Positions 3,435-45,740 of a stretch of 63,833 nucleotides of DNA are shown piece after piece; position 1 is the first letter of the stretch, and every line of letters starts with the position of its first letter. This stretch comes from Rhizaria sp. SCN 62-66 (Eukaryota): the NCBI GenBank assembly GCA_001724265.1, contig MEDY01000026.1:62001-125833 (forward strand). The letters are read 5' to 3'. The notes under the pieces were generated by a model. The model was not told the origin of the DNA. It did no database searches and was given only the letters and a program-made list of their open reading frames with translations. The translations under genes were made by a program, and so were the position numbers.

Positions 3435-4435
3435 ATGCTTGGCATGCGCTGCGCCGCGCCGCTGCGGGCGTCTGTTGGCTCTTCCTTCGGTGCTCTCTCG
3501 TCGCTCCTGACCACCTCCCGCGTCGCCCCTGCTGTCCCTGCCGCTTCCACGGTTGCTGCCGTGCCTGCGCGTACTTACCTGGGCCTTATTTCTGGCCCCA
3601 TGACGCTCGGCAACCTTGCCGACGTGCCCGGCGCCCGCAAGATCGCCAAGCGTCTCGGCCGTGGCCGCGCCTCTGGTCTGGGCAAGACTTCCGGCCGTGG
3701 TCAGAAGGGTCAGGGCGCTCGCTCGGGTCTCCGCTCGCTCACGCGTTACGAAGGTGGCCAAACCATGCTTTGGCGCCGCTCCCCGAAGCACGGCTTCAAG
3801 AACATCAACCGCAAGGAGCTGGACGTCGTCAACGTCGACAATCTTGTCAAGTTCATCTCTGCTGGCCGCATTGACGCCTCCAAGACCATCACGATGAAGC
3901 ACCTCGTCGACTCTGGCCTTGTCTCGTCCGTGCGCCACGGCATCAAGCTCTGCGGCCGCGACGCCTCTATGGTGGCCCGTCTGCCTGTCCCTATCAACAT
4001 CGAGGTCACCCACTCCACTGCCCTCGCCCGCGACGCCATCCAGGTACGTTAGCTTCACCGCGATATATCTCAACGTAGTCAGATTCCATGCGATAATGTA
4101 TTTTGTATTGAATTAACAGTTGCCCTAGTTCACGCTTATGTGCAACGTTGTATCTCTCGTCTCTTATCGTCTTCTCGACATGTCGCCGCTTTTTTTGCTT
4201 GTTCGTTTCATTCTCGCAGGAGATGGGCGGCTCTGTCAAGTTCGTCTACTACTCCCGTCTCGCCTTCCACGAGCTCCTCAACCCCGGCTCCCGTCTCTTC
4301 GTTCCCGGCCCGTCCGTCCCGCCCCCGAACAAGACGCTCCGCTATGAGCACCAGCTCTGCGGCAAGCGCGACGAGGAGAAGGCCCAGGAGCTCCGTCTCG
4401 CCCGCATCGTCCGCAAGATCCGTGTCCGCAAGTAA
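3435..4435 (+). CDS. MRPL15: Mitochondrial ribosomal protein uL15m; exons 3435-4043, 4220-4435
   Basis: KRLGRGRASGLGKTSGRGQKGQGAR..EGGQT..PKHGF uL15 motif and an Arg/Ser/Ala-rich, acid-free presequence. Intron gtacgt..cag 4044-4219. Stop TAA. Confidence 0.92.
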
Positions 4436-21800: not shown

Positions 21801-24151
21801 ATCGAGCTCATTTGCTTTACCCATCATCCAACGGCCCATTGTACGCTTCGGAACGCCACCAGCACCGTTGCTATGAGCAGCGCGAACAGCGCCATCGGTA
21901 ATAACTCCAGTTGGGGCATTGCCAGAAGAGGGCTTGTCGTTGGCATTGCTGGTGTTCGCAGCGGCAGCGAGGCCGTCTGTGTCGAGAAACGGGCCAGCAG
22001 CGGTGCCCGCCATCAGTAACGCGCGCATTTGGTTCACAATCGCGTCATCATTGCCTTCGTCCTCAGAACCAGCACTGACAGCAGAGTTTGCGTTCACATC
22101 ACCGCCCGAACTCGAGCTCGAGCTTGAGGCAACCACCGTGATGCTAGAGCCCCTGTTCGCCTTGTTGTTACCCAGCGCTGGATGCGGCCTGGCGTCTTCC
22201 GGCGCGACCTTGATTGTCACACTGCGCAGGTCTCCACCAAACGCAGCTACGGCCGCGGCGCCCTTGGCCAGCCTCTCCGCGTCCTGCTCCGTCAGCGCGC
22301 CGCTGGCGATGATGTCACTGAGAGATTCGCGCACGAGCGCGTCCGAGGCGAACAGCTCCTTAAGCGTAGGGCGGCGCGCGGGCACGGGGTCTAGCAGCCG
22401 GTCAATAAGCGCGAGCAGCGCCGGGGAGTACCGCGCGGCCGCGGACGGCGGCAACGGCGCGCGCGCGCCGGTGACGATGCCGCGCACGACAGCTGCGAGC
22501 GAGGACCCTGAGAACGGCGGCGCAAGAGAGGCCAGCTCGTGCAGCAGACAGCCCAGGGCCCAGAGGTCGGCGGGCGGGCCGTAGGGCTCGCCGCGGCAGA
22601 CCTCGGGGGCGAGGTAAAGCGGGGTACCAGCCATCGTGGAGGCGAGGTCGGCGCGCGAGGAGAGTGCGCGCGCGATGCCGAAATCGCCCAGTTTCACATG
22701 GATATCTACAAGAATTTCGACATAAAAAAACAAAAAAAGCACGTAATAATTAGACTCACGCATAAAAGCAACCACATTATACTCAAAATACCTGGAGTTT
22801 GTTGAAACATATGTGTTTTCGTACCTGAGTCGCCTTGGAGAAAAACGTTCGCAGCCTTGATATCGCGGTGCAACACCGGCTGCGGGCGGCAGTGCAGCTC
22901 GCCCACTGCAACAGCAACCTGAGTCCACCACGCCATGATGATGTCCTCGGGCAAGTACTCCGGGCGTTTGCATTCGTCATCATCGTCGCCGTTGCCGTCG
23001 TCGTCGCCCCCCTCCTGGGCGTTTGTGGGGGAGTCTGTGACTTTGTTCTCGCCATTCTCATCATCAGGCTTCGCTTGCTGCTGCTGTTTCTGCGCCTTGG
23101 CGCGATTGTTCGCGTTGCGCTGCGCGCTCTTCTCATCCCACTGCTGCATCTGCTGCTTGGTGAACCACACGCACTGCGCCAGGTCGCCGCCGTGACATAG
23201 CTCCATCACGAGATAGAAGATTCCCGACGGCACAATCATGCCGGCGCCAGCGGCCGGCCGCGCAGCAGCGCCAGCCGTCGCGCTCGCGTCAGTGCTTGAG
23301 CTCGAGGTCGCATTCGCTGCAGTCGCTGCGACAGTGGAGGGAGCGTAGTCGCTGCGAGCTGCGGCCTGCAAGAGCGCACTGTCTTCATCGCCGAGGGGCT
23401 CAAGCGTCACAAGACGGTCAACGTCCGCTGCGGACAGCGACAGAACGTTGGTGTGCGCAACACGGAACCGCTCGGCGCTTTCGTCCCATTCCTGCTCCTG
23501 CTCTTGCTCATCATCGTCGTCGTCGTCGTCGTTAGATTGCTGCTCATTGCCGCCGGATGCCGATGACTTGATCTTGGCGGCAATTTGCCCCCACGGCGAC
23601 TGCCCGGGCGGTTGGTACGGCACCCGGAACCCCGCGGCGACAAACCCGATAACGCAGGGATGCTGGATCGACGCGAGCATCTGCGCCTCGGCCACTGCAG
23701 CTCGGCGTTGGTCGGGCGTCAAGCGACGCCACCGCAACTCTTTCACGCAGAACAGCCGCGGGTCCGCGTTGTCGTTCTCCGCGCTCGAGTCGGCGTTCGC
23801 GGCTGAGAGGGCGGCAAGCGCAGACGCAGGGAGTCCGTCGATGCAGCGGGCTGCGAACACGGTCGACACGTCGCTGGAGCCCAGCAGGCGCTCGGATTGG
23901 TAACTCGACGAGCGGCGCGCGCGCAGGGCCGCAACAGAAAAGGTAGGGGCTGGCACATGCGCGGAGGCAGGCTGGGCTGGGGTTGGCGCCGCTGCGGGTG
24001 AGCTAGAGTCAGAAACAGCAGAGTCCGCCGCATGGGCGGGAGAAGAAACCGGAGCGTCGATCTCTGAAGGAACTGTAGGAGCCGATGTAAGGGCAGGCGC
24101 GGGAAGCGAGGCCTCAACAACGGTACTGTCCAAAGCAGGCGGCGCGGACAT
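18810..24151 (-). CDS. NIMA-related (NEK-type) Ser/Thr kinase with a long disordered tail; exons 22825-24151, 18810-22705
   Basis: VKEL, AEAQMLASIQHPCVI, LVMELCHGGDL, HRDIKAANVFL, VKLGDFGIARAL, GTPLYLAPE, ADLWALGCLLHEL. Intron 22706-22824 (gtacga..tag) joins LQGDS-D-IHVKLGDFG. Stop TAA. Confidence 0.9.
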
Positions 24152-24675
24152 TTACGCCGGGTAACAAAACACGCGCGGCAAGGTTGTGTTTACGCTAACA
24201 AATACTAACGAGGTTTGAGGAATGCAGCCAAAGGAGGCTACAAGAAAGTCGGTGTGCAAACAACGGGAAAGCAGTGTTTAGGGGGTAATGAAAAAGATAA
24301 TTAATTTTTCAGCAATGGAAAATGTAAATGCGTTGTTTAAACATATGTTGACGATTAAAACAGTGCACTGTGCGTTGATTTGTTGTGTTCGCGCGTGTAG
24401 TAGCCGTTGCAGCCTCACTCGTGTCGCTGGCTTTTAACCCTCATTTTTGGTAAGGCATTTCTCACCGGAGAATCCGTTACCATCAAGATGAGTTCGCAGC
24501 AAAATATTTCCGACAAATATACACATGAGCAAACAGTTGAATTCGCGTTTGAGCTAGCATGTCCTTCTCACATTCACGCGCTGTCTGACTCGATCGAATC
24601 TTCATGTCGTCACCCTTGTAGCCACCCACACAGAGCGGCTACGCGACCCAGAGCAGGTGCCTGCATACTGCTGCA

Positions 24676-26572
24676 ATGTCCCAACAGCCTATGCATAGTC
24701 CTAGCGAAGCGCCGTCTACTGGTGTAGCTTCGACACCTGGCTTTGCCGCGAGTGGCGCGAGTTCTGGTTCTTCGAGTGATAACATTCTGACAACTGCTTT
24801 GACGCTGCATAGCCCCACCATAGACTATCCCCTGGTCCCGGCCTCGCTTGCTACAGCACCCCGTGTCAATGACATCACACAACTTAACTCGTTGCTACTG
24901 CGCAGTAAGAAGGGCAACGTCTTCCGCGTCGCAGTTGAGTCCCCCGAGTCATGCAAAGCCATCGTACGTGAATTATATCTCCACAAAACACTATTTATCT
25001 CGCGGAGTTCTGAGTATAACATTATGTAACAATGGGGTGCTGTAGCACATTGCGCACCAAATGTGATATTGAGATTTCACCTTCACATGCATTTATCTTT
25101 CTTATTTTCCCTTGTTGATATGATTCCTTCTCTTTTGATTTCTCACACTGTGCGTTGCGCTCGCTGCGCAACAACACAGTACGATGCCCAGGGCCGCTTT
25201 TGCGAGGACTCCCACATCTCTCTGGACCACGAGCTTTTGATCCGTGACTCGTTCATCGAGGGCGACTACGACGTTCACCCGCCGCCCTCTTCCGCATCCG
25301 CAGCACTCTCTCACAAACCGCAGCCGCAGTCTTAGTCGCACTCCCCTCGTTTGTCGCGCACTGCATCTTCTGGCATTGTGACCGGAGCTGCTGCGTTGAG
25401 TGCGAGCGCCCCGTTTGACCCCAATGAGCACGCTATGTTCTGTGCGACCTTGCGCGATCCTGTCACGAATGAGGTACGTTTCACAGTTCAGTCACGTCAT
25501 TTATACAGGTGCTTCGCATGCTGTTGAGAAAAGCCTTTTTAGCATCCCAATGTCAACAGTCTCTTAGCATCACATAAGTTTTTTTTTTCTCATTTATATC
25601 GGACTCTGACGACGAATTCCGCGTTCAACGTGTACACAATCGCATATCAACATCTTTGCATCACAACTCGACTTTTCTCTCATCTCCTTCATCACAACAC
25701 TTTCCGTGATGCGACGCGTACCCCATCACAAGGCTGCCGGCATTGCGTTCTGGCGCGAGGTGCCCGCAGCCGACATGGAGCGCTGGATGGCGCCTTCGAT
25801 GGCGAAGCGGCTCCAGCACATCTACTCTGCGCCAGAGTCGCCCTTTTACTGCGGACCCGCCGGCATCAGCAACAGCAGCAGCGCGAGTGCGAGCATGAAC
25901 AGCAGCAGCCTCAATGCGCCTGGTGCCACTGGTTCTGACTCACACACGACAGGCTCACATTCACCGTCGCTGCAATCACATCAGGCTGCGCTGTCGTCGT
26001 CGACGGCGTTGATCCCCGCCCCCGGCCTCGCCATCCCTGTCTCCGGCGGCCCCCCGTACCCGCTCTCGGCGGTCTACATGCGCTGGATCAAGCTCGAACT
26101 CATCGCCACCAGTCCGCAGCACTACGGCCGCGGCGTCGCAACCCTGCTCCTCTCCGCAGTGCTGCTCGGCGCCGCCTTACGCGCACAGGAGCGCTGCGTG
26201 CTGCACGTGGCCGGCGGGGACGACAACGTGCCCGCGCGCCGGCTGTACGAGCGCTTTTGCTTTGCGCCCGTGCCTGGCGACGCGTTCCACCGGCCGAACA
26301 AAGACGTGTGGGCGTTGGTGGACATCGCCGGCGCGCTGAGGCGGGTGGCAGAGGACGGTGTCGTCGCCGGGGCGGCTGTCGTACCCACTGTTACTGGGGC
26401 GGACGGCGCGGCGCCGGTCGAGGGCGGGATTAAGCACCAGGCGTCGAGCGCGACTCAGGAGGCGCAGCGGGAGCAGCATGAGAAGCAGCAGATGAAGGAC
26501 GTGAAGAGCGGGAATGCAATTATAATGCATGTTTCAATTTTTGGTGAAGGCCATACGCAAGGCACTAATTAA
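24676..26572 (+). CDS. GNAT-family acetyltransferase; exons 24676-24963, 25180-25473, 25733-26572; in-frame TAG at 25333-25335
   Basis: Motif A QHYGRGVATLLL and LHVAGGDDNVPARRLYERFCF. Two phase-0 introns with gtacgt donors. Exon 2 reads through a TAG. Stop TAA. Confidence 0.82.
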
Positions 26573-26916
26573 ATGCGTTGAAAAATATACAAATACAGCG
26601 TTTATTTCATAGAACGTGTTTGTTTAGCAAACTTATCGTGTTGAATTTGAAACTCACCACGAACGCGTATTTGCACTCCGTCGCTGGAGGGACCAGGCGA
26701 GGGGGTTTGCGAGACTTGCGCACCCAGGCTCTCACGGATACTGGCGTCGATAGTTAAGAATCTGTTTAATTTCCCAGTTAATTTCGTCACTAACATACCT
26801 ATTTCAGTTTAATTTGTCGCTCATCACCACGTCTTTCCCTTCCATTTTTCAATCCGATTTTCACGCCTTCCCACTACCCTCCTTCCTTGCGTTTTGTGCG
26901 CACGCAGTCGCTTACG

Positions 26917-29900
26917 ATGCCTCCGAAAGGCAGGGGCGGAAAGTCCGGCGGTGGCAAAGGTGGCAAGGGCGGCAAGGGCGGCAAGTCCGAGCCCGCGCCC
27001 GCGCCCGTGTTGACCCCGGAGCAGAACAACCGCGTCTCGCAGATCTGCAACGTCGAGACGACCATGCGCCAAGAGTCTTTGCGCAAGTCCAAGTTCAACG
27101 AGATGAAGCGCTTCGTCGCCACCAACGGCGGCGTCGCACCCGCGTACATTAACGGCGGCTTCGGCATGCCCGCGTCTCTGACGGACGTCGTGTTGACTAA
27201 GGAGGAAGTGTTTCAGATCCGCGAGGAGTCGCTGTACGTCGCACGCAAGTCTGTGTTAGGCGACGCGAAGCCGCCGAAGCCGCCGAAGCAGGAGAAGGCG
27301 CCCAAGGGTGCCAAGGGGGGCAAGGCTGGCAAGAACCAGGACGCTCCCGTCTACGAGCCCGCGCCCCAGCAGCAGTATCAACAGCAACAGCAACAGCAGA
27401 AGGGTGGCAAGCCGAACTACAGCACAGGCAGCAACAACAACAACGCTAACGCTGGGGCTAAGGGCGCTTTTTCAACGATGCTTCCCCGCGAGATGCTCAT
27501 GGCGTTTGACCAGTTTAAGGCCAGCTCCAACATGGCTCAAATCACGTTCCCTCCCACGTTGACTAAAGAGCACCGCGCTCGTCTCCACGACCTCGCGCGT
27601 CGCCAGGTACGCCTCTTTTTTTTTGTTGACATTTTGCAACGCATAATCTCATCATAGCTTTGTCATGCCACGATTAATTTCTGCATCTAACCGCGATTTG
27701 TTGAAATGCCCCGAATTGCCAAGTTTTTAATAATATTGCATCTTTGTTGCACTTCAAAACCTCACTTTCGTCCTTTCTTCTGCGACAAACTCTTCTCTGA
27801 CAACAGGGCTTCGAGACGTGCTCCTCCGGCGGCGCCTCCGAGCGCATGCTCACCATCTCCCGCGCGCGCTCCATCGTCAAGGACACCCGCCGCGCCGCCC
27901 GCTCCAGCGCCGCCGCCGCCGCCATCCAGGCCTCCGGGTCCGCCGCCGCGCCCACCTCTGGCCTCGCGAAGGAAGTGGTCAAGTTCAGCTACGACGGCGC
28001 CGCTCTGACCGAGTTGCCGCAGATCATGGACGCCTTCCCACAGGCTGTCAACGCGCTTGTCGCGCTCGACATCATCGCGACTGCCCCTGACGATGACGAC
28101 GACACCAGCGGAAACAACAACTCTGCCGGCAACGTTATGATGGTCAACACTGATGGGTCGATCGCCGTCGTCGCCGCGTCCGCTGCGGCCACGGGCGCGA
28201 CGGGCAGTGGCAGTGTGTCGGTCTCGCAGGCCGCGCGCGCTGCCCGTCAGCTCGCCCAGGTATGTCCTGTCACTTGACTCTAAGAAAACGAGTAAATTTC
28301 AATTCAGCTTATTATAAGTTGGACTACGCTTTGTTAATCGAACATGTTCTGAGTTGCTCAATATTTACATGCACAGTCTATTTCTAAAATTCACTAAAGT
28401 TGACTCTATAACTCATTTTGTGCATATTTCATCTTGCTTGCTTTGTTTCATTCCGAACTGCAGGCCCGTCGCGATGCTGCTATGGCTGCGTCCACCGAGG
28501 CCGCGATCGCCGCCGCCACTGGCGCCAAGCCCCCCTCTGCCGCTGCCCCGACCACTGCCGCCGGCAAGCGCGCCGCTGCCGCCGCCGCCGCCGCTGTTGG
28601 TGTCGCGTCCAGTCTCGTTTCTGTCGTGATGCCACCTGAGGGATTCGCCAAGGTCCCTGTGTCGGACCCGGCGCCGGCACGCCCGCTGCATTTGCCCGCT
28701 TTCGGCCGCAGGGATGAGTTTTACCACGCGCTCGACCGCCACCAGGTACGCTCACAGCTCGAAAGCAACCAAGAAACAACACGATGTCGTATATTGGAAG
28801 ACATTTTCCGACTTTATTTGATCTATAGTTCATTTTATCGCTTTGATGTACATTTGTATATACGTACACTAATTTTGGTCTTTATATGCTTACATATACC
28901 CTTATTTCAACTCATTTGTTTCTCCGTCTCAGGTCGTAATCGTGGCTGGCGCGACGGGCTCCGGCAAGTCTACCCAGTTCCCCCAGTTCATCCTCGACCG
29001 CGCCGAGGCCCTCCGCGCGGCGGGGTGCTCCCATACGGCCACCAACAAGGACGCCACGGCCTCTGGTCTCCTCCCGCAGCCGTCCGAGGTGCGCGTGGTT
29101 GTGACCGAGCCGCGCCGTATCGCGGCCATGGCGCTCGCGACGCGCGTCGCAGAGGAGCGCGGCGAGGAGATCATCTTCGGAGACGACGATGGCAAGTCTA
29201 ACAATACCAATAGCGGTAAGAGTGCTGGCACGGTCGGTTACTCGATCCGCCACGAGTCCCAGCAGAGCCAGAACACACGCTTGCTGTACTGCACCGTCGG
29301 CATCCTGCTGCGCCGCATCACTTCCAGTCGCTTCCGCGCGCAGAGCCGCGGCAAGAGCACGCTGAACCCCATGGACGACGGGTACTGGACGGAGCCCGAG
29401 TCGCCGTTCATCCAACGTCTCCTGCAGTCGCTGTCCAATGTCACGCACATCGTCATCGATGAGGTGCACGAGCGTGGCAAGATGACCGATTTCCTGCTCA
29501 TCATCGTCAAGCACATCCTCCCGCACCGCCGCGACCTCCGTCTCATTCTCATGTCCGCCACCCTCGACGCACAGCTTTTCTCCGATTACTTCGGCGGCGC
29601 GCCTGTGGTCGAGGTCGAGGGCCGCACTTTCCCCGTCGACGTGTTCCATGCGCACGAGCTCCTCGCCTCGCTCCCGCGCGCATGCAACCGCATCTCGCGC
29701 TTCCCGCTGGATCCCATCTCGCACCCGGCGCGGCTGAGCAACGACCCCATGCAGGGTCTGCCTCCTGGCGCGGGGCCCGGAGCCGTGCCGCCGAGCGACG
29801 CTGCCGACGCCGCGGCCACGGCGTACTTGGTCCGACTTGAGGAGTCGTTCGGGCCCACGGTTACTCGCGCGGCCCTGGCCATGGACACACGCAAACTGCG

Positions 29901-32724
29901 CGGCAACACCGACCTGACGCTGTTCATGGACCTTCTGCTGTACATCACTGACCGTGAGATCACGGCCGCTGAGCTCGACGCTATGGGCTCCGCCAAGGCG
30001 GGGTCGAAGCTCGCCACCGCCAAGCGCTCCGGCAAGGTGTGGGTGACTGAAGACACTGGCAAGGGCGGCAAGAAGGCCGGCGGCGCCAACCGTTTGGCTG
30101 CCGCCGCGCCCATCACCAGCGTGAGCTCAAAGTCGGCCAAGGTCGTCAAGTCCGAGTTTGACTACGACGCCGACACCGACGCCGCGGCCCTCACCGCCGC
30201 GCCCTCTGGCGCCGACCGCCTCACTGCGGCGTTCGGCGGCCTCACCCTCGCCACGGACAGCGCCGCCAACGCCGGCGGTGTCCAGTTGTTTGACGAGTTC
30301 GGCTTCCCCATCGCCGCGTCCGCCGTTTCCTCCCCCCCAGCGCCCGGTTTTGCGGCCGGTCTGTTCCCCACCGCGGCGCACGACGCGCGCTCGCACCGTG
30401 GCCGCCGCGGCGGCTCGGGCCCCGACGCTGAGCCCAGCACGCCGAGTGTCATCGCGCAGCTTGAGGCGGACGACGCTGCCCACGGTCATCCCTGGCGCGG
30501 CCCCGGCGCCACCCTCAACGAGGATGAGGACGAGGACGACGACGAGGACGACGGCAAGGCTGAGAAGGCCAAGGCGAAGGCCGCGAAGACTGCTGAGGAA
30601 GAGGAGGCCGCGAAGCCGGCGAAGAGGCATACGGCCGCCGCCTCTGCCGCAGCGAACAAGTCCTTCAAGGGCGGCAAGGGCGGCCGCGGCGGCGCCGGCA
30701 GCAGCGACACGCTGTCTGACCTGCCCGCGCATTGCCCCGGCCTGCCCCCGCGCGCCGAGCTGCCCTACGGCGCGATCCTGGTGTTCCTGCCATCATGGGA
30801 CAGCATCACCGAGATCATGACTGAGATCGAGATGCACCCGGTCCTGGGCGATAAGTCGCGCTTCTGGATCGTGCCCTTGCACTCTTCGCTCACGTCAGAG
30901 GAGCAGCGCGACGCGTTCGTGCGCCCCGAGCGCGGCCAGTGGAAGATCATTCTCTCGACCAACATCGCCGAGACGTCCGTCACCGTCGAAGACATCGTGT
31001 ACGTCATCGACTTCGGTCTCGTCAAGGAGAAGCTCTTCGACGCCAAGGCCAACATCTCAACGTTCGGGCCCACATGGATCGCGCGCGCCAACGCCACGCA
31101 GCGCGCCGGCCGCGCCGGCCGCGTGCGCCGCGGGTTCTGCTTCCGGCTGTACTCGGAGATGTTCACGACGCAGATGGCGCCCACGGCGCTGCCTGAGCTG
31201 CTGTGTACGCCGCTTGAGGACATCGTGCTTAACGTCAAGGCGCTGCTCATGGGCCCGCCGGAGGACAAACGCGACCGTGAGCGTCAGCAGCGCAACAAAA
31301 CCAGCAACAATCGCCGCGGTGGCCGCAACAACAACAGTAGTTACGGTGAGGAAGAAGACGACGACGAAGACAACGACGACGACGAGGAGGAGGACGCTGG
31401 CCATCCCACGCGTGTTGGTGAGACAATGGCGTTCCTCGCGCGCGCCATCGAGCCCCCGGAGGAGGCGTTCGTGACCAAGTCGATCAAGGACCTCATGCGT
31501 CTCAACGCGCTCGACAACGATGAGTACATCACCGAGATCGGCCGTTTCTTCATCACCATGCCGCTCGAGGCCCGCCACGCGCGCATGCTGCTGCTGGCCG
31601 CGTTGCTCGGCGTGTTCGACCCCGTTCTCACCTTCGTCGCTGCGTCATCGTGCGCGCCGCTGTTCGTGGTCGGCGCCAAGGACGAGCGCGACGCGATCCG
31701 CGCCAACATCAAGTGCTTCGCCGGCGACTCCGAGTCGGACACGATGGCGACACTGGGCGCGTTCAACGAGTGCGTGGCCGCGAGCGACCGCAAGGGCTTC
31801 TGCGTCGCCAACTACATGAAGTTCGCTGTGTTTATCGCCATCGTGCGCACCAAGCAGCAGCTGCTGCAGATCTTCAAGTCCGCTCCTGCGCTGCGCTCTG
31901 TCGTGCCCGAACGCTGTCTGATCAACTTTGCCGGCAAGCTCATCATCCCGGGCGCCGAAGAGGACGCCAACGGCCGCGCGCGCGAGGCGCACTTCAACTG
32001 CAACGCGCACCACTTGCCGCTGGTCGAGGCCGTCATCGGCGCCGGGTTATACCCGCAGATCGGCGCGCTGCAGGCCAAGGGTAAGAACCCGCGCGCGTCT
32101 GCGCTGCTGCGCCCACCCGTCGGCAACGTCGGGCTCGCGTTCCACTCTCTCGCGGCCACGTCCTCGGGCCCGGCGCCCTGCTCGCTCGTCGGGTACGGCG
32201 AAGTAGTCGGTACGCCGTCGCTCACGCTGCGGTCCATCACGTTCCTGTCGCCGCTCGCCGCGCTGGTGCTGGCGCCTGCGAACAAGACGGTGCTCGAGTA
32301 CGACACCAACGTCGTCGGCGCCTACGTCGAGAAGTACAACAACATGCTTGATGCGCAGGGCGGCAACACCGCGCTGCGCCCCGGGCAGCAGCGCCCGCGC
32401 GGCATCCTGCACATCGACGAGTGGCTCGGTGTCGAGATGGACATCGCCAGCGTGTCCAACATGCAGCTGCTGCGCGGCCTCATCTCCGCGCTCTACCAGC
32501 TCGCCGCCACACGAGGGCTCTCCGGCCAGGCACGCGCGCTCGGCTTCCACCTCGGCGAGCTCATTGCAGATGCGCTCCAGGGTGCCGCCGAGCAGCGCCG
32601 CATGGCTAACGCCAACGAGGAAGGGCTTAAGACGTCGCTGTCGCTTCCTGTCGGGCTCCAGGGCCGCGGTGGGGCGCAGCAGCAGCAGAAGCAGAAGCCT
32701 AAGGGCGGACGCGGCCGCCGGTAA
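26917..32724 (+). CDS. R3H-domain DExH/RHA-family RNA helicase (YTHDC2/DHX36-like); exons 26917-27606, 27807-28259, 28464-28745, 28933-32724
   Basis: R3H FPPTLTKEHRARLHDLARRQ|GFETCSSG; GATGSGKST, TEPRRIAA, DEVH, MSAT, GAILVFLPSW, STNIAETSVT, QRAGRAGR and an HA2 region. Three phase-0 GT-AG introns. Stop TAA. Confidence 0.92.
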
Positions 32725-33536
32725 ATGCGAAGCCGCGTAAGCCGAGTATTGTCTCTTTTGTCTTGCTCTTTGTTTTATCTTTTTGTTTCATTTCTTTGTA
32801 TCTGTTTTTCTCCCGATATATATCAGCAACTTGTCTTTTCTCTATCCAGTGATAGTTTCTACTACAATAGCCGATTAGTATTCTTTTCACGCGTTTTTAT
32901 GGTCGCGTTTTTTTCTTCAATCTAATGACTTATGTGATGATTCTTTCACATGCTCTAGTTCTAATCCTGTATGCCAAAAAAATGTGTTACGCAGTGTGTT
33001 ACACAGTTTAAGTATTCAAATATGTTTATGCAATGCGTTGTTTTGTCCCCAATATCTTTAATGTTGTGTTACCACGTACACGCCGAACTAGACAACGAAC
33101 ATACACACATGTACTTGTGCATAATTGAGAACTTTTGGGCTGAGAATCATAAGTGCCTTTCCGGTGTTGCCGTGAGTGTAGTGAGTGTATGACTCATAGT
33201 CGCGAGCTAATGGTGTTGAGCTTGCCTATTGGCCGCCTGTTTGTCACTCTCCAGCCGCTATCCAGCTTACGCCAGAGCAGTTTCCTGGTTATTTACTGGT
33301 TCCTACTAGTACTAGGTGACACGGATGTATACGTCGACGAAATAAGTTTCTGCAATGTGTATTCTCATGTTCAAAACCCTACGTTCAAACGTACTGAGCT
33401 GTTTGCGCTTGCTTCCACTGGTATTCAATTGCAATACAAAACCAAGTAACACCCCTTCCTAAAAATAAAATCACACCACGTGAGTTAATTAAACTACTGT
33501 AAAAAACTATTGTAACAAAACGTGATAATACTTACA

Positions 33537-36500
33537 TCACCGACACTGCCGGGTTTGTTTGCGCTGTTTTTCCAGCACGTACCACGCCACAAGCAGTGAC
33601 TGCTGCACAATCTTGCGCAGCATCACAGCGACCCACCGCTCCATCTCCACCGCGGGCCCCATCGCAAGATTCTTAAGATACTCCAGCCGCCACGAAACCC
33701 ACTCCTAGCTCCTGAGCGCGCGCAATGCCAGTCCCGTGTTGGAGTTGCGCTCAGCCGGGCCATACGTGCTGCTCACGGTGAAGGTGTCATCGCCGCGGTG
33801 CAGGCTCAGCGCGCTGTCGGGGTCGCGCCGCGCCGCGCGCAGGGCCGCGACGACCGCGCTGCGGGAGTCGAGCGTGACTTCGCTGCCGTCGGACGCGAGC
33901 ACCGCGGCGGGCGGCAGCGACAGGTCGTGCGCGGCGGCGGAGGACGACAACGACGAGGACGACGCGGAGGAAACGTGGAATGATGCGTCGGCCGCGCGAC
34001 GAGCGGAGAAGATGACGCACTCGAGCCACGAGGGCGGGTGGATCTCCTCGTCGTCGGAGCCGATCTCACCGCTGCTATGACCGCGGCCGGCGCTGTGACA
34101 GCGACCGCGACGGCGACGCCGGCAACGGCTGTGGCCGAGGCTCTGCCCGAGGGAACTGGGCACGCGCGCCATGACGTGCGCAATATCATGCGGCGTCAAC
34201 CCTTGTGACGCGAGCGTCTGCAGCACAACTGTGGCGACAACGTAGCCCAGCGCAGAGCCGGCGTCGCAGTGTTTGTCCACCATCTCGGCCACGTGCTCGA
34301 ACGGGTTCAACCGCAGCAGGTAGAACGTGGACAGGTCAGACAGCGGGACACGGACGCCCGGGTGCGAGAGCCACTTCCAGTGCTCGATGCTGTTGCCGCT
34401 GAGGTCGAACACAGACGGCAGCGCTAGTGCGTGGTCGATCGGGATCACCTCCACGGTCGGATCTTTGACCGTCGCAGTGCGCGAGACGAGCATGTTGCCT
34501 TCGTTGCGGTCCAGGTTCAGGATGCGGAAGTCGAGCAGCGCAATGCGGTGCATGCATTCGATCGATCCGACCATGCGGTCACCAAACTCCTCCTGGTTTT
34601 CGCGGAAACGGTGGAAAGAGAAGATGCTTACACCGCCGGCGGGGCCCGCACGCTTGACACCCTCAACGCGTGTCTCTGGCACGCCAGCGAACCGCTCACA
34701 GTCGAGGTAATACGCCAGAAGCTCGTTCGACGCGCTGTCACAGCTGCGCAGCATGGGACGCTCTTTGTTGCGCTGTGGCGGGAACACGATGACGTGTGGC
34801 CGCAACGGCGCCCCCGCCGCCAGCGTCGCGGAGGCCGTCGCTGCGTGTTGCGAGCTGATCCCGTTCGCTGCCACAGAAGCGCCGCTGTTGGCGCTGTTTG
34901 CGGCGGCGGCGGCGGCGGCGCCGGACATGTAGACGCTCGCACTGGCGCTGGCGCTCGCGGTGGGCTGCCCGGGCCGCAGCGGCGGCAGACCCAGAGACGT
35001 GACAGACCGTCCCAGCATTGGCGACGCAAGCGGGACGCCGCCAACACCGCCAACGCCAGCGCCAATGCTGGTATACGCAGCAGCGAGCGCGTCGCCGCCA
35101 CCGTAACTGTGACTATGTCCGTGAGTTTGGCCGTGGTTTTGGCCGGGCGCCAGCGTGACTGTCGGCGTGACAGCGGGCTCGTTTGAGGCGACCGGGCAGT
35201 CGGTCACGTCCTCAACCGTCACTGTGGACAGAGCGAGGCCGGAGATCGCAGACGACGACGCCAACGGCGCGAGCGCGGACAGCGACACGGACGGGCGCGG
35301 CGGCGTGCCAGTGGATAGCCGCTGCATGCACTGCTGCTGTTGTTGCTGTTCGTACTGGTACTGTGCCTCGGCCGCAGTATTGCTCGCGGCGGCGGCATAC
35401 CGTTGCCGCGCAAGATGCCCAGACACAAACGAGTCCAGCACCTCGCTGCTCTCCTTGCCCGTGACGCCGCCGCTCGCCCTCCCAGCGCCCACGGCTCCAC
35501 CGCTGCGCGCCGCCGCGGCAGTGGCGCTGGGGGCGAAGGCGCTGGCACCGGGCCGCGCCCACGCCATGCCGTCGTGCCGCGGGGGCGTGTCAAGCACCAC
35601 CGACACCGGCGCAGGCACAGGCACAGGCGCGTCCGCCGCGGACCGAGCACCGCCGCCAGCGGTCGCAGTGGAGCCGCGGTGCGCCGCGTGCAGTCCGCGA
35701 TGCTGCACTGCACTGGTGGCGGCGATGGCGTGGTCGCTGGTACTGCCCGCCTCGCCGTCGAGCCCGGTCGCGGCGGACTCGGAACCGCTCTCGACCTCGG
35801 CCGCCGCGGTCGACAGCACAGTGCGCGACGCCGCAACGTGCGCGCGCTGGCTCAAGTGAGCGTTGTCGTTCGCGGCGGAAGATGGCAGTGATGATGGCAG
35901 GGATGATGACGCGGACGGGGACGGAGCGGCGATCGGCGCGGGCGGCGGCAGCGTGGATACCCCACCGTGCGCAGTGTTGTTAACGCGACGATGTAGATGG
36001 CCCGGCGTTGCAGAGTGGCGCGGTGTCGCCGCCGGGCTCCCACCTGTCTGCACCGTGTTGCTCCCCGCAACAGCGCTCATGAGGATCGGCGCGATGTGTG
36101 TCAGCGAGCGGTGCACTGTGGGGACGGAGCTCGTCGACCGCACGTGCGACAACGCGGGCTGCATCACCGGCACAACGCTGTTGGCGGCGTCAGATGACAC
36201 GTGCCTGACCGCGCTAGCAGCGTCAGCGGCCGGAAGATATGGGTGGTACTGGTGATGACCGGAGAACGAGCGCGCGTGCATATGCGTGCGTTGCTGTTGC
36301 TGATGCAGCTGTTGCTGCTGCAACTGCAACTGCTGCTGCTCTTGCTGCATCAGCATCACTTCCTCGGTCGCGCGCTCTGCCGCGATATACGGCATGTGCT
36401 TCATCTCGAGGAACTTGGCGTCGTCGCACACCACGCGCACCGCAATGGACTGCTGCTGCGACGCGTCGGCTCCCAGCCCGAGGCCGCCCGCCGCAGAGGC

Positions 36501-39500
36501 GGGGTCAGTGCCCGTCGACGATGTCGATCCCGACGCAGACGCGGACGCGGACGCAGAGAAGGGGGCGAACGCACCCGCCACGCCGGCCGCGGGCGGCGTG
36601 AGCGAAACCAAAGGAGACTGCGAACGGCTCAGGTTGCGGCTACGACCGTGTTGAGACTGCATTTGCGTCTGCGTGTGCGTGTGCGTATGCGGTGCGGACT
36701 GGTAAGACATCGACGCGGTGGGACGCATCGGAGCAAAGAACACTGAACCACCAGAGGATTGACTTCTGCTGCCTGTGACGGCAGCCGGTGCAAACACCAT
36801 GTCGTCATCCTCGTCGCAGTCAGCGGTATAGTTCGCAGCGGCGGCGGCGGCGGCCGTGGTGTATTGCGCGGTGACCGTCGAGTCACCAGTCGCATTCACA
36901 GTCTCTGTCAGCGTCGCTGAAGTCACCCCTGGCGCTGACACCGCAGCAGCTGCACTCGCGTTCACTGCAGCAGAGGCGGGGGAGGTGCTCACAGCCACCG
37001 TGTTGCCGCCGCGAGTGCCCTCCATAACGCCGTATGAACCCGTGCGGTCAAGCGTAGTCAGCGCTGAGCCAAACGCACCGCCGGCAAGCGGAGTCCTGCG
37101 GCCGTGCTTCGGGGGCCGTCCGCCGGCGCTGCCGAAGCTGCCAGCGGAGGCAGGCGCGGAGGGTTGTTCAGGGCCGAAGGATCGCGTGCGATACAACTGC
37201 TGTTGTTGTTGCTGCTGCTGCTGTTGCTGTTGCTGCTGAGACTGCTGCTGCTGCTGTACCTGCACTTGTGTCACCGTACTGTAGACACTACCAGCAGGAA
37301 GACCTTTAATCAAGTCGCTCTTGGCGATGACGAAGTTCAGGGAGTTGCTTTGCCGCTGCACGGCGCCGGCGGTGAACGATGCCCCCGCGCCGTGCGCGAT
37401 AAGCGCGGCCATGCCGGCGGTGCCCGAGTGGGCACCCGTGCCCGCGGGCGCCGCGAGCACCGCTGACGACGCGCGCGACAGCGAGGCCGGGACGAGAGCG
37501 CTCCTACTGTTGGTCAGAACTGTCGTCGTCGTCGGCGCAGCCGCTGTGTGAGCCCGAGCGCCGCTACTACCGCTGCCGTCGGTAAGCGCAAGCGTCGGCG
37601 ACCGCGTCCGCAGCAGAAGCGCACCACTGTTGTTGCCGCCGCCGCCGCCGCCGCCGTGAGTCGCGCTCACGCTCTTGGCGAACGTGTCAGACAACGCATT
37701 GTTGCCGCTCTTGCGCACGTACGCGACGCCGTGCGCGTCTTTAATCTTGTGCGGAGCGGACGTGCCTTCGAGAGCGCCCTCCTCAACGTATTGCTCGAGC
37801 AACGGCACGGGGGCGGCAAACGCAGCGGGTGCCATGGGCAAGCCCGTGGTGAGGAAGAGCGTTGAGGACGAGTTCGGCAGCGCATCGAACATGATGCCAC
37901 CGGTGAAACCGCTGCTGCCGTTGAGGCTGGCCGTCGTCGTAAGCGTCAGCGTTGCCGCAGCGTTCATGGGAGGGTTGTTGGAGGTGTGAGGCGCTGACGC
38001 TGGCATCTGTGTGGCGTAATGCGGCACGTGAACTAGACCACGCCGCGTCGATTCGTGATGCGCGACTGTCACTGAAGCGCCAACGAGAGACGACGCAGAA
38101 GCAGACGCCGGCAATGTCGGAGCATTGTCCGCGTTGCTGTCAGCAGTGTTAAGGTCTTCGTCGTCTTCATCGCTGTCATCGTCCTCGTCTTCGTCTTCAT
38201 CTTCGTCATCATCGTCATCGTCGTCGTCGCCGTCGTTGCGTTCAGGGTCGCGGAGGCGGCCGCGCGGTGTGTCAGGACTCATGGGCACAGGTGCCGACGC
38301 CACAACACCAAGCGCCGCACCCGTCGTCGTTCCCGCGAGTGTGAACGATTCATCCGTGGCGACTGACACACCTAGAGACGCCAGAACCGGGGTCACCGCA
38401 TTCGACCCAGCCGCGGTTTCTGCAGCCAAAAGGCCTGAATTGCGACTTGTACTAACTTTGTCCTTATCAGCGGCGGGGACGGGCGAGCCAAGCGCGGTCA
38501 ACGCGTTCGAGGCCGTGGCTGTGGCAGGCACTCGTAGTGGCTTGGTCGGGAACGAGTATTCTTCGCAGACACGCATGCATTCGTTGGTGATGGTGATTGT
38601 GCGGCGCGACACGCTCTCGTACCTTCTATTCTTGCGGGCGCTATTCGACAGCACATGATTGCCTAGCTCCGACACTAGCGGCGCGTGTCCAGTCGCGGGC
38701 GCCGACGACGCAGACGGAGGCAAGGGCTGTGGGCCAGCGCTGTGAGCGACCTCCGACGACTTGGCTTCGCTGGTGCCGTTGCCATCGCTGTTGCTGCCTG
38801 TGAGTCCGTTGCTGGCCCAGCCAGAAACAGCGCTGCCGTTGACGAGCGCAGACGAGTCAGCGAGACCTGCGCCGCTACCGCCGCTGGCTGCGCGCTTGCG
38901 CAGCTTCCTGCTAAGAGACCGCCCAGAGGTTTTGCAGTTCGCACCGTTGACTGGACCGCCAGAGCGTCCCGTTGACAGCACAGTCTCCATCGTCAGCGTG
39001 ATACTCTTAAACGGCGACTGCTCACCTTGCTGCATGCGCGCGGCATGAGTCTGCACGTTTTGCGCGAACACCTCCTGCATCGTGTTCGAGACCGCAGTCG
39101 CTGACACGGAAGGCTGGGCCAGACTGGCGGACGTTAAGACCGGGACGTGGGCCAGAGAACCGTGCCGCTGCGCAGGAGTCAGGACGGACGCAGTCATCGC
39201 AGCCGCAGACATCGAGGCGCGCGACTGGGACTGCGCCTGCATGCCACCGCCGCTCACAGCGTTGCCTGAAGCGCCGACGGAAACCGATACAAGGTCAAGA
39301 GGCTTCCGCATGCGCAGTGCGCTCTGCAACGACCGCTGCGGCGACGCACGCGGGTCCGCGCCGTTACTGCCAAAGGTGCTGTTGTTGAAGCTGCCGCTGC
39401 TGCTGCTGTAGAACTGGTTGTTGTGCTGAAGCAGCGCCTGAGGCGGGGGCGGCGGGGGCAGCGTCGCTTCCGGTGAAACGGGGAAAGTGACCGTGGGCGA

Positions 39501-42500
39501 GGTCACACGTTCCGGACTCGTGACCGTGAGCACGTTGAGGCTGACTGCGACGCCACTAGCGGGGCCCATGGCCACGGGACGCGGCAGCGCGGTCACGGAG
39601 CCAGCGTCCGTGTCCGTATCAGTATCCACAGTCGCGCTGGCGATAGCTGCGACAAACGGGTGCGTACTGGAACGCGTCGCAGTCGCACACGGGGGCTCAA
39701 TCATGCGTGCCGCGGCACCGCTGTTGCTACCGCCGCTGGTGGCGCTCGGCCCTGCAGCGAGCCCGGTGCGCTGCAGTGGCGCCAACGAGTCGTCCTCAAC
39801 CGCAACGGCCACCGCGGCGTCACCGTCAATGACCACAGTGGCTGCGTCTGACGCTTGCGGAGACGGGGACCGCGTGTTCGCCTGCGTTTGCGGCTGAAGG
39901 TGAGTATGATGCTGAGCCTGACTCTGCGTCTGCGTCTGCGTCTGCGAGTGCGTGCGCGACAGAGACTGTGGTGAGATTAGCCCGCCGAAGAAGTCACCTA
40001 TCTTTGTGGCGACAGCCGCGACCGTCGCAACGGCACTCGTGGCAAGGCCAACGCTGCTGCTGCTGCTATTGGTCCGAGCCAGATCGCCCGGACTTGGTGA
40101 CTTCACGCCGCCGAGCGTGTTGTTGACATCGAACGAAAACACAGCAGAGCCCGACGCCGACGCAAAGGCCGAGACGTCCGCAGCACTGGCAGATGACGAT
40201 GCAGAGAAAGAAGCGTCAGGAGAGTGGTCAGCCGTGTTAAAAGCGCTGCTGAGCCCGCGTTGGCGCTGAATTGAGGTAGGTGCAGCCGGAAAACTGCTGC
40301 GCATCGACAGCCTGCTACCGTGCTGACTCCCAGCGCTTGCGGTCGCGTTGCTTTCACGCGGTGACAACATGAAGCCGTGTCCACTGGCCATCGAAGTCGC
40401 AGGGACATCACTCAGCCCGAGTCCCCCAGTCGCAGTGGCAGGCGCGATCGCAGTGGCAGCATCGCCGGTGTTGATTGTGACTGCGGGCAGAGAGTCGCCG
40501 AGTGTGTGCGTGAGCGAGTCTGTCCCGTCGCAGCTGTCGCCCATCGTAGCGCTTAGCACCGGCGCAGCCGCCACAGCCGCAACAGGCGCACCATACTCAC
40601 GACCGCCGTACACCACTGGGGTGCCTGAGATGGTGAAGAGAGTGGCACTGTTGCTGTTGAGGTCGATACTATTGTTGTGGCTCGAGCTCGCCCCGATGCT
40701 GCTACTACTGGCGCTGCTGCGGCCGCTGTGGCTACGTTCAACGGCGGCCGCGAGCGACGTCACCGCACAGTCGCCGTCGCCGTCGCCGTCGCCGTCACCG
40801 GTCTGCCGCACTTGCTTTGTTGCCTGCGCAGTTGCGGCCACGGTGATGGGCGAGAGCACCGCGCCCCACGCAGACCCTGACCGGGCCTCATTTTCCGCAG
40901 TATTTGCGCTGGCGTTGGCAGCACTTGCGGAGGCCGAGACGATGGCGTTGGCAAGCGTGGTACGAGTGCGCGTGATCTGACCGGTGGCGCGGCCGAGAGC
41001 GCCGGAATGCGTGCCAGTAAGTGCCTGCGGGGACAACAGCGCAGTGGGCGCTGGCGGAGACTGTGGCTGTGAGGTCTGTGACTGAGAAGACTGTGTACGG
41101 TTGAGCAGGATGGGCTGCTGTGCATTGAGAATGCTCTGTGACACCGCATTGTCACCACCAAAGCCCGTATTCACACTCAGGTCCGCGGTCACGGCGCTGC
41201 TGCTGTTGATGCCGTGCGCCGCGTGGCTCAACGGCAATATCGCAGCAATGCCTGCAGTAGGGGCGCCGGCGCCAGTGAACGCGAACTGCGTCGAAGGCAT
41301 CGTGCGCGCGTTGTCAAACGCGGCGTCACTGAGCAACGCGTGCGAAACATCAACTGCTAGCGGAACACTGGCGTCAATGTCATCACTCTTGTTGTTGTAC
41401 GGCTTGCTATGAGCGGTGTCGGAGTTGTGGCGATGACTCCTTGCGTCGACCGCATCTGAGGAGAGCGACTGCGACACTGACTGGGCTTCAGAGACAGATG
41501 ACAACGAATAAGGCGAATCCTGCTGCTGCTGCTGCTGCTGAGGCATTGAAAATGTCGCGCTTACAACGCGACTGCCTCCGCCGGCCATCGCAGCGGTCAC
41601 ATCAGCGGCGCGCGCCAGACGCTGCTCGAGCGCGATCTCTCGCTTCGTCTGCTTAGACTGCTTCAGACTCGCACCTACAGCCGGCTTAGCGTTGCTAACA
41701 GCGGCACACGCGGGAGCCGGGGCGGTGGAGACAGCTGCTGAAGCAGACGGGCGCGCGAAAGAGCGCGCGAAGCTTGAATCTGTCGTTTGCACCGCGAGCT
41801 CGATGCTGAAGCCCGACGCAGCGGCGCTGATTGCGGCGCTGCTGCCGTCGCCGTCACCGGTGAGACGGGAGAGAAACGAGCGCTGCACCGCGTCGCCGCT
41901 GTCGGCTGCGGGCGTCGTGAGGTCAATGTACTGGGCCGCTCCCCCGCTGCCGTCTCCGTCGCTGGGGCTGCGGGCTGATGCGTTGCAGTAGTCACTGTCA
42001 CTGCTGATGGCATTGTTGTTGCTTTCGCTGGTGCTGAGTTGAATGAGGTGCGCATTAGACGAGTCAGCGCCGGTGTAGATGAAGTCGCACACTCCTTCGC
42101 TCTCATCACTCTGATCAACAAAATGACTGCTGCTTGCCGAGTTGTTCTGCGCAAAGCTGACAAACGCGGGCACAAAACCGTTTGCACCCATGTTCACGCT
42201 GGGCATATGACCGTGAGCGGCGGCATCCGCGGTATCCGCATAAACAAAAGCTCCATCAGGCGATGCACTGTACAGGTCGCCGTACAGCGCGCCAGAGCCC
42301 TCCGCCGCGTATCCACGCATCGCATCGCGGCTGAGGCCGTGGGCGTGACTGTGCCCGTTGTGTGCGGGAAAGGGATACATCGCAGCGCCGTTGTGGCTGT
42401 GCATGAAGTCGCCGTGGCCGTGGTAGGGACCGTGGTACTCAGTGTGGCCGAACTGAGACACACCCGACGCGGTCGCACTCAGCGACGGCTGCGGCGAGTG

Positions 42501-45113
42501 ATGCGACATTGTCGTGTCAAAATCGATCACGTCGTCGTCGTCGTCGTCGTCGTCATCATCGTCGTCCTCGTCGTCGTCGCCGTCGCGCGCAGTCGGCCCG
42601 GCAGCAGTCATGACAATCGCAACCGAGCCCATGTCGTTCGCCATACTAGTATGGCTAGAAGAAGCGTTCGCAGAGGCGGCAGCGTTGTGAGGAGTCACGA
42701 CATTGCTCGCATCTGTATCATCGTCGACAAGGTCGTCGCTGTCGTTCGTGGTGCCACGTTCATCGTCGGTCTCGTCGCCACCCTTGTCCACGCCAGAGTC
42801 TAAGGGGCTGTCTAAGGGGGTCGCCGCGGCGCCGTCTAAGGGCCGCGTGATGGAAAGACTGCTCAGTGCTAAGGAGTCACAGCTACTGTCGGCGAGCCTG
42901 CTGAAAGACTGTGAGCTGCTCAGCAAATCATCCTCCAACTCCTTCTTGATATGGTCATTGTTATTGCTGCTGTTGCGTTTGTTACTGCTCTGCGTCGTAT
43001 TGGCGGTGTTGGCTCTGACGAGAGTGAAGTTCGCGCTGGAGCCGCGACCGAGGCTCTGCGCAGTCAACGAGGGCTGCACTCCAAGCGAGCCGGTGACGCT
43101 GGGCGGCGACACATGAGACAGAGTCGTGCTCGCGTTCTCTCCACACCCGACACCGACCGTGCTCGCACTGGCGCTCGTGAGGCTGGTGTCGGACACGGTG
43201 TCGCTCTCAGCCGCGGCGGCGTCATCGCTCTTCAGACGAGTCGTCACCGTGGCCTCTGTGCGGACGTCGCTCTTGCCAGCGACACTGTGGAGTCGTTTGC
43301 TGCCGCCGAGAGTATCGGTGTTGAGTGAGATCACGGATGACTCGGCGAAACTGCTCGACGGCGTGTTCATCAGCGTCGTCTGCTCACCTGCGCTCACATC
43401 CACGTTCGAGTGGGCATTCACACTCTTGCTGTTGTTGTTATTATTGCTGTCAGAGTTAGACCGCGAGTACTCGTTCGGCGCCCATGTGACAGTCTTTCCA
43501 GCTAACCCAGTCACGATCCCAGAGCCAGCACCAGAGCCTGAGTCACTGCCAGGGTCAATCCCATGTGCAATGAAGCCAGGGCCAGAGTCAGGGCCAGGGC
43601 CAGGGCCAGATCCGGAGAATGAACCAAAGCTAGGTGCGCTGCTGCTGGCCGTAGGGCGCTGAGGCTGTGCGAACCGCGGTTGCGCTGACGGCCGTTGCAG
43701 CGGCAGAATCGTCGCGTTGGCGGATGACACGGTGGGGGAACGCAGGGGAAGTCTGAGTCCGCCGCCATTCGCAGTCGCACTGTCGATGCCACTGGTGGCG
43801 CCAACGTCTAAACCGCCGCCAAGCTTGCTGTGGTGGCCGCGGTGACCGCCGTGGCCGCTATGGCCGCGCAGACTGTGAGTCCGAGAGACAGCGGAGTGAC
43901 CGTGAGAAGAGTGACCGTGAGCGCCCGATCCCACACCACTGCCCGGCACCACACCCGCGGCCCCCACAACTGTCGGCCCCGCAGCCACTATGCCCAGGGT
44001 TCCGCCCACGGGCCCCATGCCCACAGTCATGCCCACGGTCATCGGCGTGGCGATGGTGGCACCGGCAAGCTCTCGCGGCAGCACAAGCACACGGAGCTGG
44101 TCAGACAGTGTTTTCACCACAGATTCCGCTTCGACCCGCGCGCGAGTGACCGTGAGCAGCGAACCTGCGTGGCCGCACTTAGCGCGCACATGGAGCGCTT
44201 CGCTGCGTTTCCTGTTCTCAGACTCGATGCTGGTCCGCATTGCGGCGGTGTAGCCGTCACTGTCGACCCTGTCGTCGTCGTCGGGGCCGTCTTTGTCGTC
44301 TTCGTCGTCGTCATGGCTCCTGTCGCTGGCACTGCTATCACTGCTCTCGCTCAGAGTATCGCTGCAGCTGCCGCTGGTGCCGTTCTTGTCGTGATTGCTT
44401 TTGTTCTCAGCGGCTTCACGGCAGTCGGCTTCCGCGGCGGCGGCGGGCCTGGTGCGCTGGTACTCCTCGCACAGATACGGCGTCCCCGCGGCCGGTACGC
44501 TGTACCGCGCAACCGCCCGCGCAAGACAGCGGCCGCCCAACAGCGCATGCAAGCACCGCAGTGGTGAGCCATTCGCGGTGTCGCACTTCCCGCAGCAGCA
44601 CGCTTGGTCGTCCTTCTTGTTTTCATCGACACACTCCGTGGCCTCTGCGTCGGCGTCTTTGCGCGCAGCACGGAGCGCCTGCTTGAACTCCTTCGTGCCG
44701 TGTCCGTGCCGGGCTTGCAGCGCGAGCACAGTAGTCTGGGCCCGCCACAGCGCGCGCGGCAACCGGAACGGGATCGCGCGCGCCTGCGCGCTCAGAGCTG
44801 CAGCCTCGGCCGCGGCGCGCGCGGCGTCGGCTGCAGATTGCGCGAGCTGGCCGGGGTTTGCACCCGGTCCGCCCCCGTCAGCAACGGCTCCAGGGCGGCG
44901 CTGGCTCGGAGGGATATAGCGACGTTTACACGGCGCCGCGGCAGCGAGCAGTGCCACAACCGGCTCCACAGGTACTGTGCCGGCGGAGGAGGACGATGTC
45001 GCCGACGATGAAGAGGATGTGGAAGAATACGAGTGAGTTGTTGGGGAGGGAGCCGAGGCGGCCGGGTTTGGCGCCGGCTCGGGGCCGATCAGGCCCGGCG
45101 CGGACGGCAACAT
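33537..45113 (-). CDS. Giant (~3850 aa) low-complexity protein with a C-terminal type-II (gamma-like) PI4-kinase domain; reads through TAG 33705-33707 to TGA 33537-33539
   Basis: NELLAYYLD..FAGVPET, IALLDFRILNLDRNEGNMLV, VIPIDHALALP, WKWLSHP. Likely ATG 45113 (MLPSAPG); the frame is open up to ATG 45452. After the TAG, 55 coding-like codons follow (EWVSWRLEYLKNLAMGPAVEMERWVAVMLRKIVQQSLLVAWYVLEKQRKQTRQCR). Confidence 0.8.
37195..37256 (-). repeat. CAG/CAA polyglutamine microsatellite in the PI4K-like gene
   Basis: (tgc/tgt)n on the + strand; encodes QQQQQSQQQQQQQQQQQQQQ. Confidence 0.85.
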
Positions 45114-45740
45114 GCGTTGCACAGACACGCCGCTAGGGAAACTCGCCGCGCAGAGTGAGTGGTGCTTGGGGAGCCGTGCGCGGGGCCAGAGGCCGGGGGG
45201 AAGGCGGGATGGAGTTCGAGAGGTCTCTTTTCTGTGAGGAAGTAGATTATTGTCTCGAAGAGAGGAAGGAGAAGGTGGGATGGCAAACAAACTCTCAAAA
45301 GTGGTCCAAACGCACTTAGAGAATTTTCCCAGCCCCCTACGAAGTTTTAGAAGGATAACCGGGATCAGGTATGCGAGATAAGATGGACTGGTGGTGAGAT
45401 CGGAGTCCTTTCTCTCGCAACAAAGAAGGATATCGAGGCAATAACGCGACATATACGAGCAGATTTTTAGATAATTATATAATTAATGATATTAGTAGAA
45501 ATAACCCGGGGATTTCAGTCTTTAGTCGATCAAAGCGATCCCAGTGTGATGTTCTTAGTCACCTCAACTCTTCTTGGACCGGCATGTTTGTCTCACCCCC
45601 TCTGTTTCCGCTTAAACAGATATAGCCGATCATTAAAAATCGATTTCTGAGATATTATTCTGCGAATCAATACTATTTATGTATTTATTGTTTAATTCAT
45701 TAACATAATCTCGCTGAGGTTTGTATATCTTTCTGGATGC

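Follow-up and report, generated by a model that had tools for sequence, protein, structure and literature searches.

Nuclear genetic codes in which UAG alone has been reassigned while UAA is kept as a stop are documented in PMC5304391 and PMC11687900, and the former counts few lineages with such codes, only two of them outside the ciliates. In the fornicate Iotanema spirale UAG is read as glutamine and UAA still terminates translation, and in Rhizarian sp. exLh (Sainouroidea) UAG encodes leucine, with 384 in-frame UAGs counted in 71 transcripts (PMC5304391). For phyllopharyngean ciliates, PMC11687900 describes UAG as Leu or Gln, together with suppressor tRNAs, in genomes derived from metagenomes. 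In Amoebophrya sp. ex Karlodinium veneficum all three stop codons are reported in frame (PMC6394959).

Here we describe a window (the whole stretch of DNA analysed, 63,833 nt) in which TAG occurs inside coding sequence. An earlier note, made from the sequence alone, had pointed to one such codon in an internal exon of a GNAT acetyltransferase gene and had proposed that it is read as glutamine. Our analysis indicates that the organism probably uses a UAG-only stop-to-sense code variant in which TAG is unusually rare (6 in 16,193 codons). The deciding evidence lies beyond the coordinates of the GNAT gene, in two neighbours, a PI3/PI4-kinase-like gene and an orphan ORF. Very low TAG usage is the distinctive trait of this system and may point to a reassignment that is still at an early stage. 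Literature searches, supplementary files excluded, found no description of a wastewater eukaryote with a UAG code.

Results

The window and its source organism

Coding blocks in the window have a GC content of approximately 0.6-0.7, and the spacers and introns between them are AT-rich. Exons are very long, with single ORFs of up to 3925 and 1964 codons, and the window is nuclear DNA of a GC-rich, intron-poor eukaryote. The window, from a contig of at least 64 kb with about 60% GC and introns of 119-259 nt, is not ciliate-like, as ciliate genomes differ in these respects. Several studies contain the sequence in their metagenomes of bioreactors, wastewater and activated sludge, so the organism is uncultured. 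The gene for the RPA1 large subunit begins at the window edge (3-593, minus strand); its best named matches are from plants and a diatom, at approximately 40-47% identity, and a relative, P0016, reaches 68%. The full RPA1 proteins P0015 (454 residues), which is the organism's own, and P0016 (451 residues) are without the N-terminal PF04057 domain, unlike most other matches. Neither the RPA1 matches nor look-ups of clusters and of the Pan3 atlas yielded a taxonomic placement. Scans of the window and of L001-L007 for tRNA genes, whatever their type, came back empty.

Nine introns were delineated in the window, at 1741-1929, 2115-2365, 4044-4219, 22706-22824, 24964-25179, 25474-25732, 27607-27806, 28260-28463 and 28746-28932. 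They measure 119-259 nt, have a GC content of 0.31-0.43, and start with GTACG followed by T, C or A in eight cases and with GTATGT in the remaining one. The near-invariant GTACG donor, the narrow range of lengths and the low GC are what one sees where introns are few and splice signals strict. The intron at 28260-28463 is backed by a spliced RNA contig joint, from 28256 to 28461, in two runs. A literature search for lineages with GTACGT donors gave nothing specific.

Four sequencing runs were compared with the window over positions 24300-44299, three of them of RNA type and one, X4, DNA-like, with unspliced contigs. A contig from a poly(A) metatranscriptome (X8) spans 27466-27750 and passes from an exon into the intron at 27607-27806 unspliced, indicating that the RNA-type libraries contain unspliced RNA or DNA of the organism. 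Searching by codon-usage log-odds for stops with coding signal on both sides was non-discriminating in this GC-rich window because antisense frames score as coding too.

Structure and homology of the GNAT gene

The GNAT gene lies on the plus strand and has three exons. Exon 1 (24676-24963) comprises 96 codons from the first ATG, the presumed start, and ends in phase 0. It is followed by intron 1 (24964-25179; 216 nt, GTACGT..CAG, GC 0.40), whose junction is spanned by the homolog alignment, and by exon 2 (25180-25473; 294 nt, 98 codons), which is phase 0 at both ends and is flanked by aacaacacag at 25170-25179 and by gtacgt right after its final gag at 25473. Its translation reads YDAQGRF..HKPQPQS*SHSPRLSR..CATLRDPVTNE. 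Intron 2 (25474-25732; 259 nt, GTACGT..AAG, GC 0.42) leads to exon 3 (25733-26572), which contains the acetyltransferase domain with the motif QHYGRGVA and the terminal TAA (26570-26572).

A protein search with exon 3 returned eight proteins, one of them a self fragment and the other seven homologs of 291-338 residues, with 29-34% identity, that carry PF13508 and/or PF00583. The end of exon 1 (..VAVESPESCKAI) aligns with the seven homologs, exon 2 aligns over its first 31 codons (..SLDHELLIRDSFIEGDYDV) with their ..SHEVEQxLFDAFIDDDYDG, and the start of exon 3, GIAFWREVP, aligns with their GLVFWREVP. Since the homologs match at all three places, exon 2 is real and is phase 0 twice; the borders given in the earlier note, cag on the left and gtacgt on the right, proved exact to the base, with the frame fixed by the seven homologs. 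A metagenome scan with exon 3 found no GNAT ortholog from a close relative, and the homologs from the protein search did not exceed 34% identity.

Exon 3 matches PF00583 with 25.7 bits (cut-off 20.7) over its residues 118-175, downstream of the TAG. The acetyl-CoA binding motif of the GNAT superfamily is Q/R-x-x-G-x-G/A, and QHYGRGVA, read directly in exon 3, conforms to it. Judged by profile and motif, the gene is a member of the GNAT acetyltransferase superfamily, and the acetyl-CoA motif lies downstream of the TAG, as the earlier note had it; with both the profile match and the motif in exon 3, a stop at 25333 would cost the protein its catalytic half. In public protein collections the gene is present as a fragment of 225 residues. 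X4 and the window differ at 26369 and 26387, both first-codon positions in the low-complexity C-terminal tail, where the changes (Gly to Arg and Thr to Ala) were each seen in one contig at a depth of 5.4.

The in-frame TAG of exon 2

The TAG (25333-25335, plus strand) is codon 52 of exon 2 and falls within a low-complexity linker that has a conserved block on either side, so the earlier claim of an in-frame TAG within an internal exon was borne out. Over 24300-26254 an X4 contig, which comes from a separate study, shows 0 differences, the TAG included, so the codon is not an assembly error. Homologs align at both ends of the exon, which means that the frame is identical before and after the TAG, and with the N- and C-terminal halves of the protein in one frame, the TAG must be decoded if the whole enzyme is to be made. 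The linker that holds it varies in length and sequence among the homologs. Coverage of exon 2 was close to nil in the three RNA-type runs (depth 0.32, 0 and 0.09 over 24967-25633), and no RNA joint turned up at intron 1. A single C-to-T change separates the TAG from CAG, which would hold for a recent nonsense mutation as well.

Coding conservation across a TAG in the PI3/PI4-kinase-like gene

A reading frame of approximately 3980 codons on the minus strand (33537-45482) matches PF00454. Most of it is low-complexity sequence rich in Ala, Ser, Thr and Gln, and the PI3/PI4-kinase catalytic domain lies only near the C-terminus. A protein search with this gene gave one relative, P0014, with 39% identity. 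The in-frame TAG, at 33705-33707 on the minus strand, stands one to one with an Arg (CGC) of this relative in an alignment that is gapless across it (LRALRS-TAG-EWVSW against IRAARS-R-DWING in P0014), with four of the five residues before the TAG identical, and the alignment goes on for 50 residues beyond, 18 of them identical, to the end of the protein. Downstream of the TAG the conserved C-terminal end (33537-33704, minus strand) comprises 55 codons plus a TGA; these codons are coding-like in composition, and GC drops to 0.34 only past the TGA. DNA of the relative, found in other metagenomes (L002, L003), has CGC at the TAG site and a TGA end within three codons of that of the window.

The kinase-like TAG was also found in other assemblies. 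L001, from the same organism in another metagenome, has a single mismatch over 3643 nt, not at the TAG, which is kept, and an X4 contig over 32412-33823 shows 0 differences, the TAG included. Among the four runs, this codon is covered by the unspliced, DNA-like X4 contig only. A PDB sequence search with the kinase-like C-terminus gave only PI4K2A, at an E value of approximately 2, and was of no help for the extension. On a Verrucomicrobia MAG scaffold, L008:7952-10810 encodes a 952-residue protein that has the motif LNLDRNEGNML in common with the kinase-like gene, and its kinase core is 48% identical to that of the eukaryotic gene over 48 residues; it looks like a bacterial PI3/PI4-kinase-like protein, and it uses the standard code.

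Four TAGs in a 3118-codon orphan ORF

The orphan ORF (45741-55094, minus strand) runs for 3118 codons to a TGA end and accounts for four of the window's six in-frame TAGs, at 52173-52175, 49875-49877, 49542-49544 and 49524-49526 on the minus strand. In frame it contains 4 TAG, 0 TAA and 0 TGA, with no frameshift, and its two sense off-frames contain 56 TAA, 54 TAG and 168 TGA. The first two of these TAGs have no AT-rich spacer at their sites. The ORF has the lowest GC3 among the genes of the window (0.55). No Pfam family was found in it, and a search among 1.84 billion representatives returned pieces of the ORF itself only, so it allows no inference on the amino acid inserted. In public collections it is split into four pieces of 966, 723, 99 and 1257 residues.

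Stop codons across the window

In the confident reading frames of the window, which together amount to 16,193 codons, we counted 6 in-frame TAGs, 0 TAA and 0 TGA, a TAG frequency of approximately 0.37 per 1000 codons. At the 12 gene ends, a small sample, TGA was used seven times, TAA five times and TAG not once. The GC content of the 150 nt past the terminal stops was 0.31-0.46 in 11 of the 12, and past the six in-frame TAGs it was 0.47-0.61. The in-frame occurrence of TAG exceeds chance at the level of the window. Both TAGs that are covered by independent assemblies, those of the GNAT and kinase-like genes, recur there. The base that follows the TAG is T, G, T, A, C and C at the six sites, and this diversity indicates that they share no common read-through context. 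Among the sequence-level features of UAG-only variants, in-frame UAG with a conserved downstream part was found in the kinase-like gene and, through distant homologs, in the GNAT gene, and UAA and UGA were found at gene ends and not in frame.

The amino acid at UAG

For the six sites, the dipeptide-context log-likelihood was 3.19 for Q, 1.14 for K, 1.07 for P, 1.0 for E and -0.28 for L, which places Gln first by approximately 2 nats and Leu seventh. Two of the TAGs directly precede CAG, and the tract in the GNAT gene reads CAG..CAG..TAG. The sole ortholog residue aligned with a TAG is the Arg of the kinase-like relative. Arg exchanges conservatively with Gln, Lys or Glu rather than with Leu, Tyr or Trp, which makes it compatible with glutamine and not diagnostic. 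Gln is favoured on account of the context likelihood, the neighbouring CAG codons and the Arg partner, and if TAG is a sense codon, we give glutamine an even chance; Lys, Glu, Leu and Tyr may be considered as alternatives. Should glutamine be right, the code would be equal to NCBI table 15. The earlier proposal divides into two parts: its reading of TAG as sense is well supported, mainly through the kinase-like gene and the 3118-codon ORF, while its assignment to glutamine came out weak, with a lead of some 2 nats and Arg as the aligned residue.

Discussion

Taken together, our results make it likely that the organism reads UAG as a sense codon and uses UAA and UGA as terminators. Three observations support this: the codons lie in frame, coding sequence is conserved through one TAG and past it, and gene ends do not use TAG. 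If this reading is correct, the UAG of exon 2 would stay in the GNAT mRNA, and the ribosome would insert an amino acid there and complete an enzyme of approximately 473 residues. By analogy with UAG-only variants, a cognate tRNA with the anticodon CUA would decode the codon, and the release factor eRF1 would recognise UAG less efficiently. As a counterpoint, however, TAG is far rarer here than in the described UAG-reassigned lineages, four of the six sites fall in an ORF for which the search gave no homolog, and the one ortholog residue that aligns is Arg and not Gln.

The rarity of TAG would also suit an organism with the standard code and no dedicated suppressor tRNA, in which UAG is leaky and near-cognate tRNAs read through it: only 6 of 16,193 codons are in-frame TAGs, and the scans of the window and L001-L007, which gave no tRNA gene at all, gave no tRNA(CUA) either. 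Against such leakiness, the four TAGs of the orphan ORF would multiply the losses, so that hardly any complete protein would result from partial read-through. Moreover, no common context follows the six TAGs, and TAG is the terminator of none of the 12 genes. We consider read-through of this kind unlikely.

Quite unlikely, in our view, is that the code is standard and the GNAT gene has become a pseudogene or has a nonsense allele fixed in it, with the other TAG-containing genes likewise inactivated. Its TAG is indeed a single transition away from CAG in a linker that is not conserved, and the RNA-type runs, which give exon 2 next to no cover, showed no expression of it. Nevertheless, the splice sites, the frame, the acetyl-CoA motif and the terminal TAA of the gene are all intact, and the proposal would require three of approximately 13 genes to be dead through lesions that are TAG in six of six cases, without a frameshift in the 9.3 kb of the orphan ORF. 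The C-terminus of the kinase-like protein past its TAG is, furthermore, conserved to the same degree as the remainder of the domain. A fixed nonsense allele may also be confined to the GNAT gene.

Removal of the TAG from the GNAT mRNA by a short in-frame intron, either 25273-25335 or another GT..AG pair, is very improbable. Eight in-frame GT..AG pairs span the TAG, and cutting out 25273-25428 would join DYD to HAMFCATL, a sequence similar to the DYDG-LLHLSTLH of the homologs. However, all eight candidate donors are without G at +5 and all candidates have a GC content of 0.58-0.63, and the nine introns of the window, one of them confirmed by RNA, have GTACG or GTATG donors, a GC of 0.31-0.43 and lengths of 119-259 nt. 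The 63-nt candidate on the plus strand (25273-25335, GTTCAC..TAG), which the earlier note had described as non-consensus and coding-like, is very unlikely to be an intron: its donor GTTCAC has neither A/G at +3 nor G at +5, it is about half as long as the shortest intron seen, and its GC is 0.63 as against 0.31-0.43. Skipping of exon 2 would keep the frame but lose a conserved block. Splicing offers no explanation for the kinase-like gene, whose TAG aligns one to one with a residue and thus cannot be accounted for in this way. Editing of U to C, which would turn UAG into CAG in the transcripts, is barely credible: the two codons differ by one base and nothing more direct speaks for it, no RNA differences were seen at any covered TAG, although cover was poor, and we know of no general mechanism for U-to-C editing of nuclear mRNAs.

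Returning to UAG as a sense codon, we tentatively suggest that the window represents an early stage of its reassignment in an undescribed non-ciliate lineage, with UAG gone from gene ends and re-entering coding sequence, a reading that we hold to be possible and somewhat doubtful. Under it, coding sequence would contain about 0.4 UAG per 1000 codons, for the most part within low-complexity linkers and one weakly biased orphan gene. If true, codon capture would here be caught by nature in its re-introduction phase, and the very low TAG frequency would suit the study of the transition state of a reassignment. A further independent UAG-only case would add data on how UAA and UAG come to be uncoupled. 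In practical terms, gene callers that apply the standard code split or truncate the proteins of this organism, as happened to the orphan ORF and the GNAT protein.

A close comparison is with I. spirale, in which UAG alone is reassigned and UAA and UGA terminate, as proposed for the window, where Gln is the leading candidate too. I. spirale, however, uses UAG commonly, and a large number of conserved sites served to assign its amino acid (PMC5304391), whereas the organism of the window has approximately 0.37 TAG per 1000 codons, is GC-rich and intron-bearing, and has Gln as a candidate. Rhizarian sp. exLh likewise shows a UAG-only reassignment in a non-ciliate, and the depletion of UAG from its highly expressed genes, as described in PMC5304391, can be set beside the location of four of the six TAGs of the window in its lowest-GC3 gene; unlike in exLh, leucine ranks seventh in the context likelihood of the window and fits poorly with the aligned Arg. 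The phyllopharyngean ciliates resemble the present case in that UAG reassignment was recognised in uncultivated organisms through environmental assemblies, UAA being the stop that stays fixed (PMC11687900), and differ from it in that TGA is also a frequent stop in the window (7 of 12 gene ends). As in Amoebophrya, in-frame stops occur in otherwise normal protist genes, but, in contrast to what PMC6394959 reports for that organism, TAG is the only stop codon found in frame in the window.
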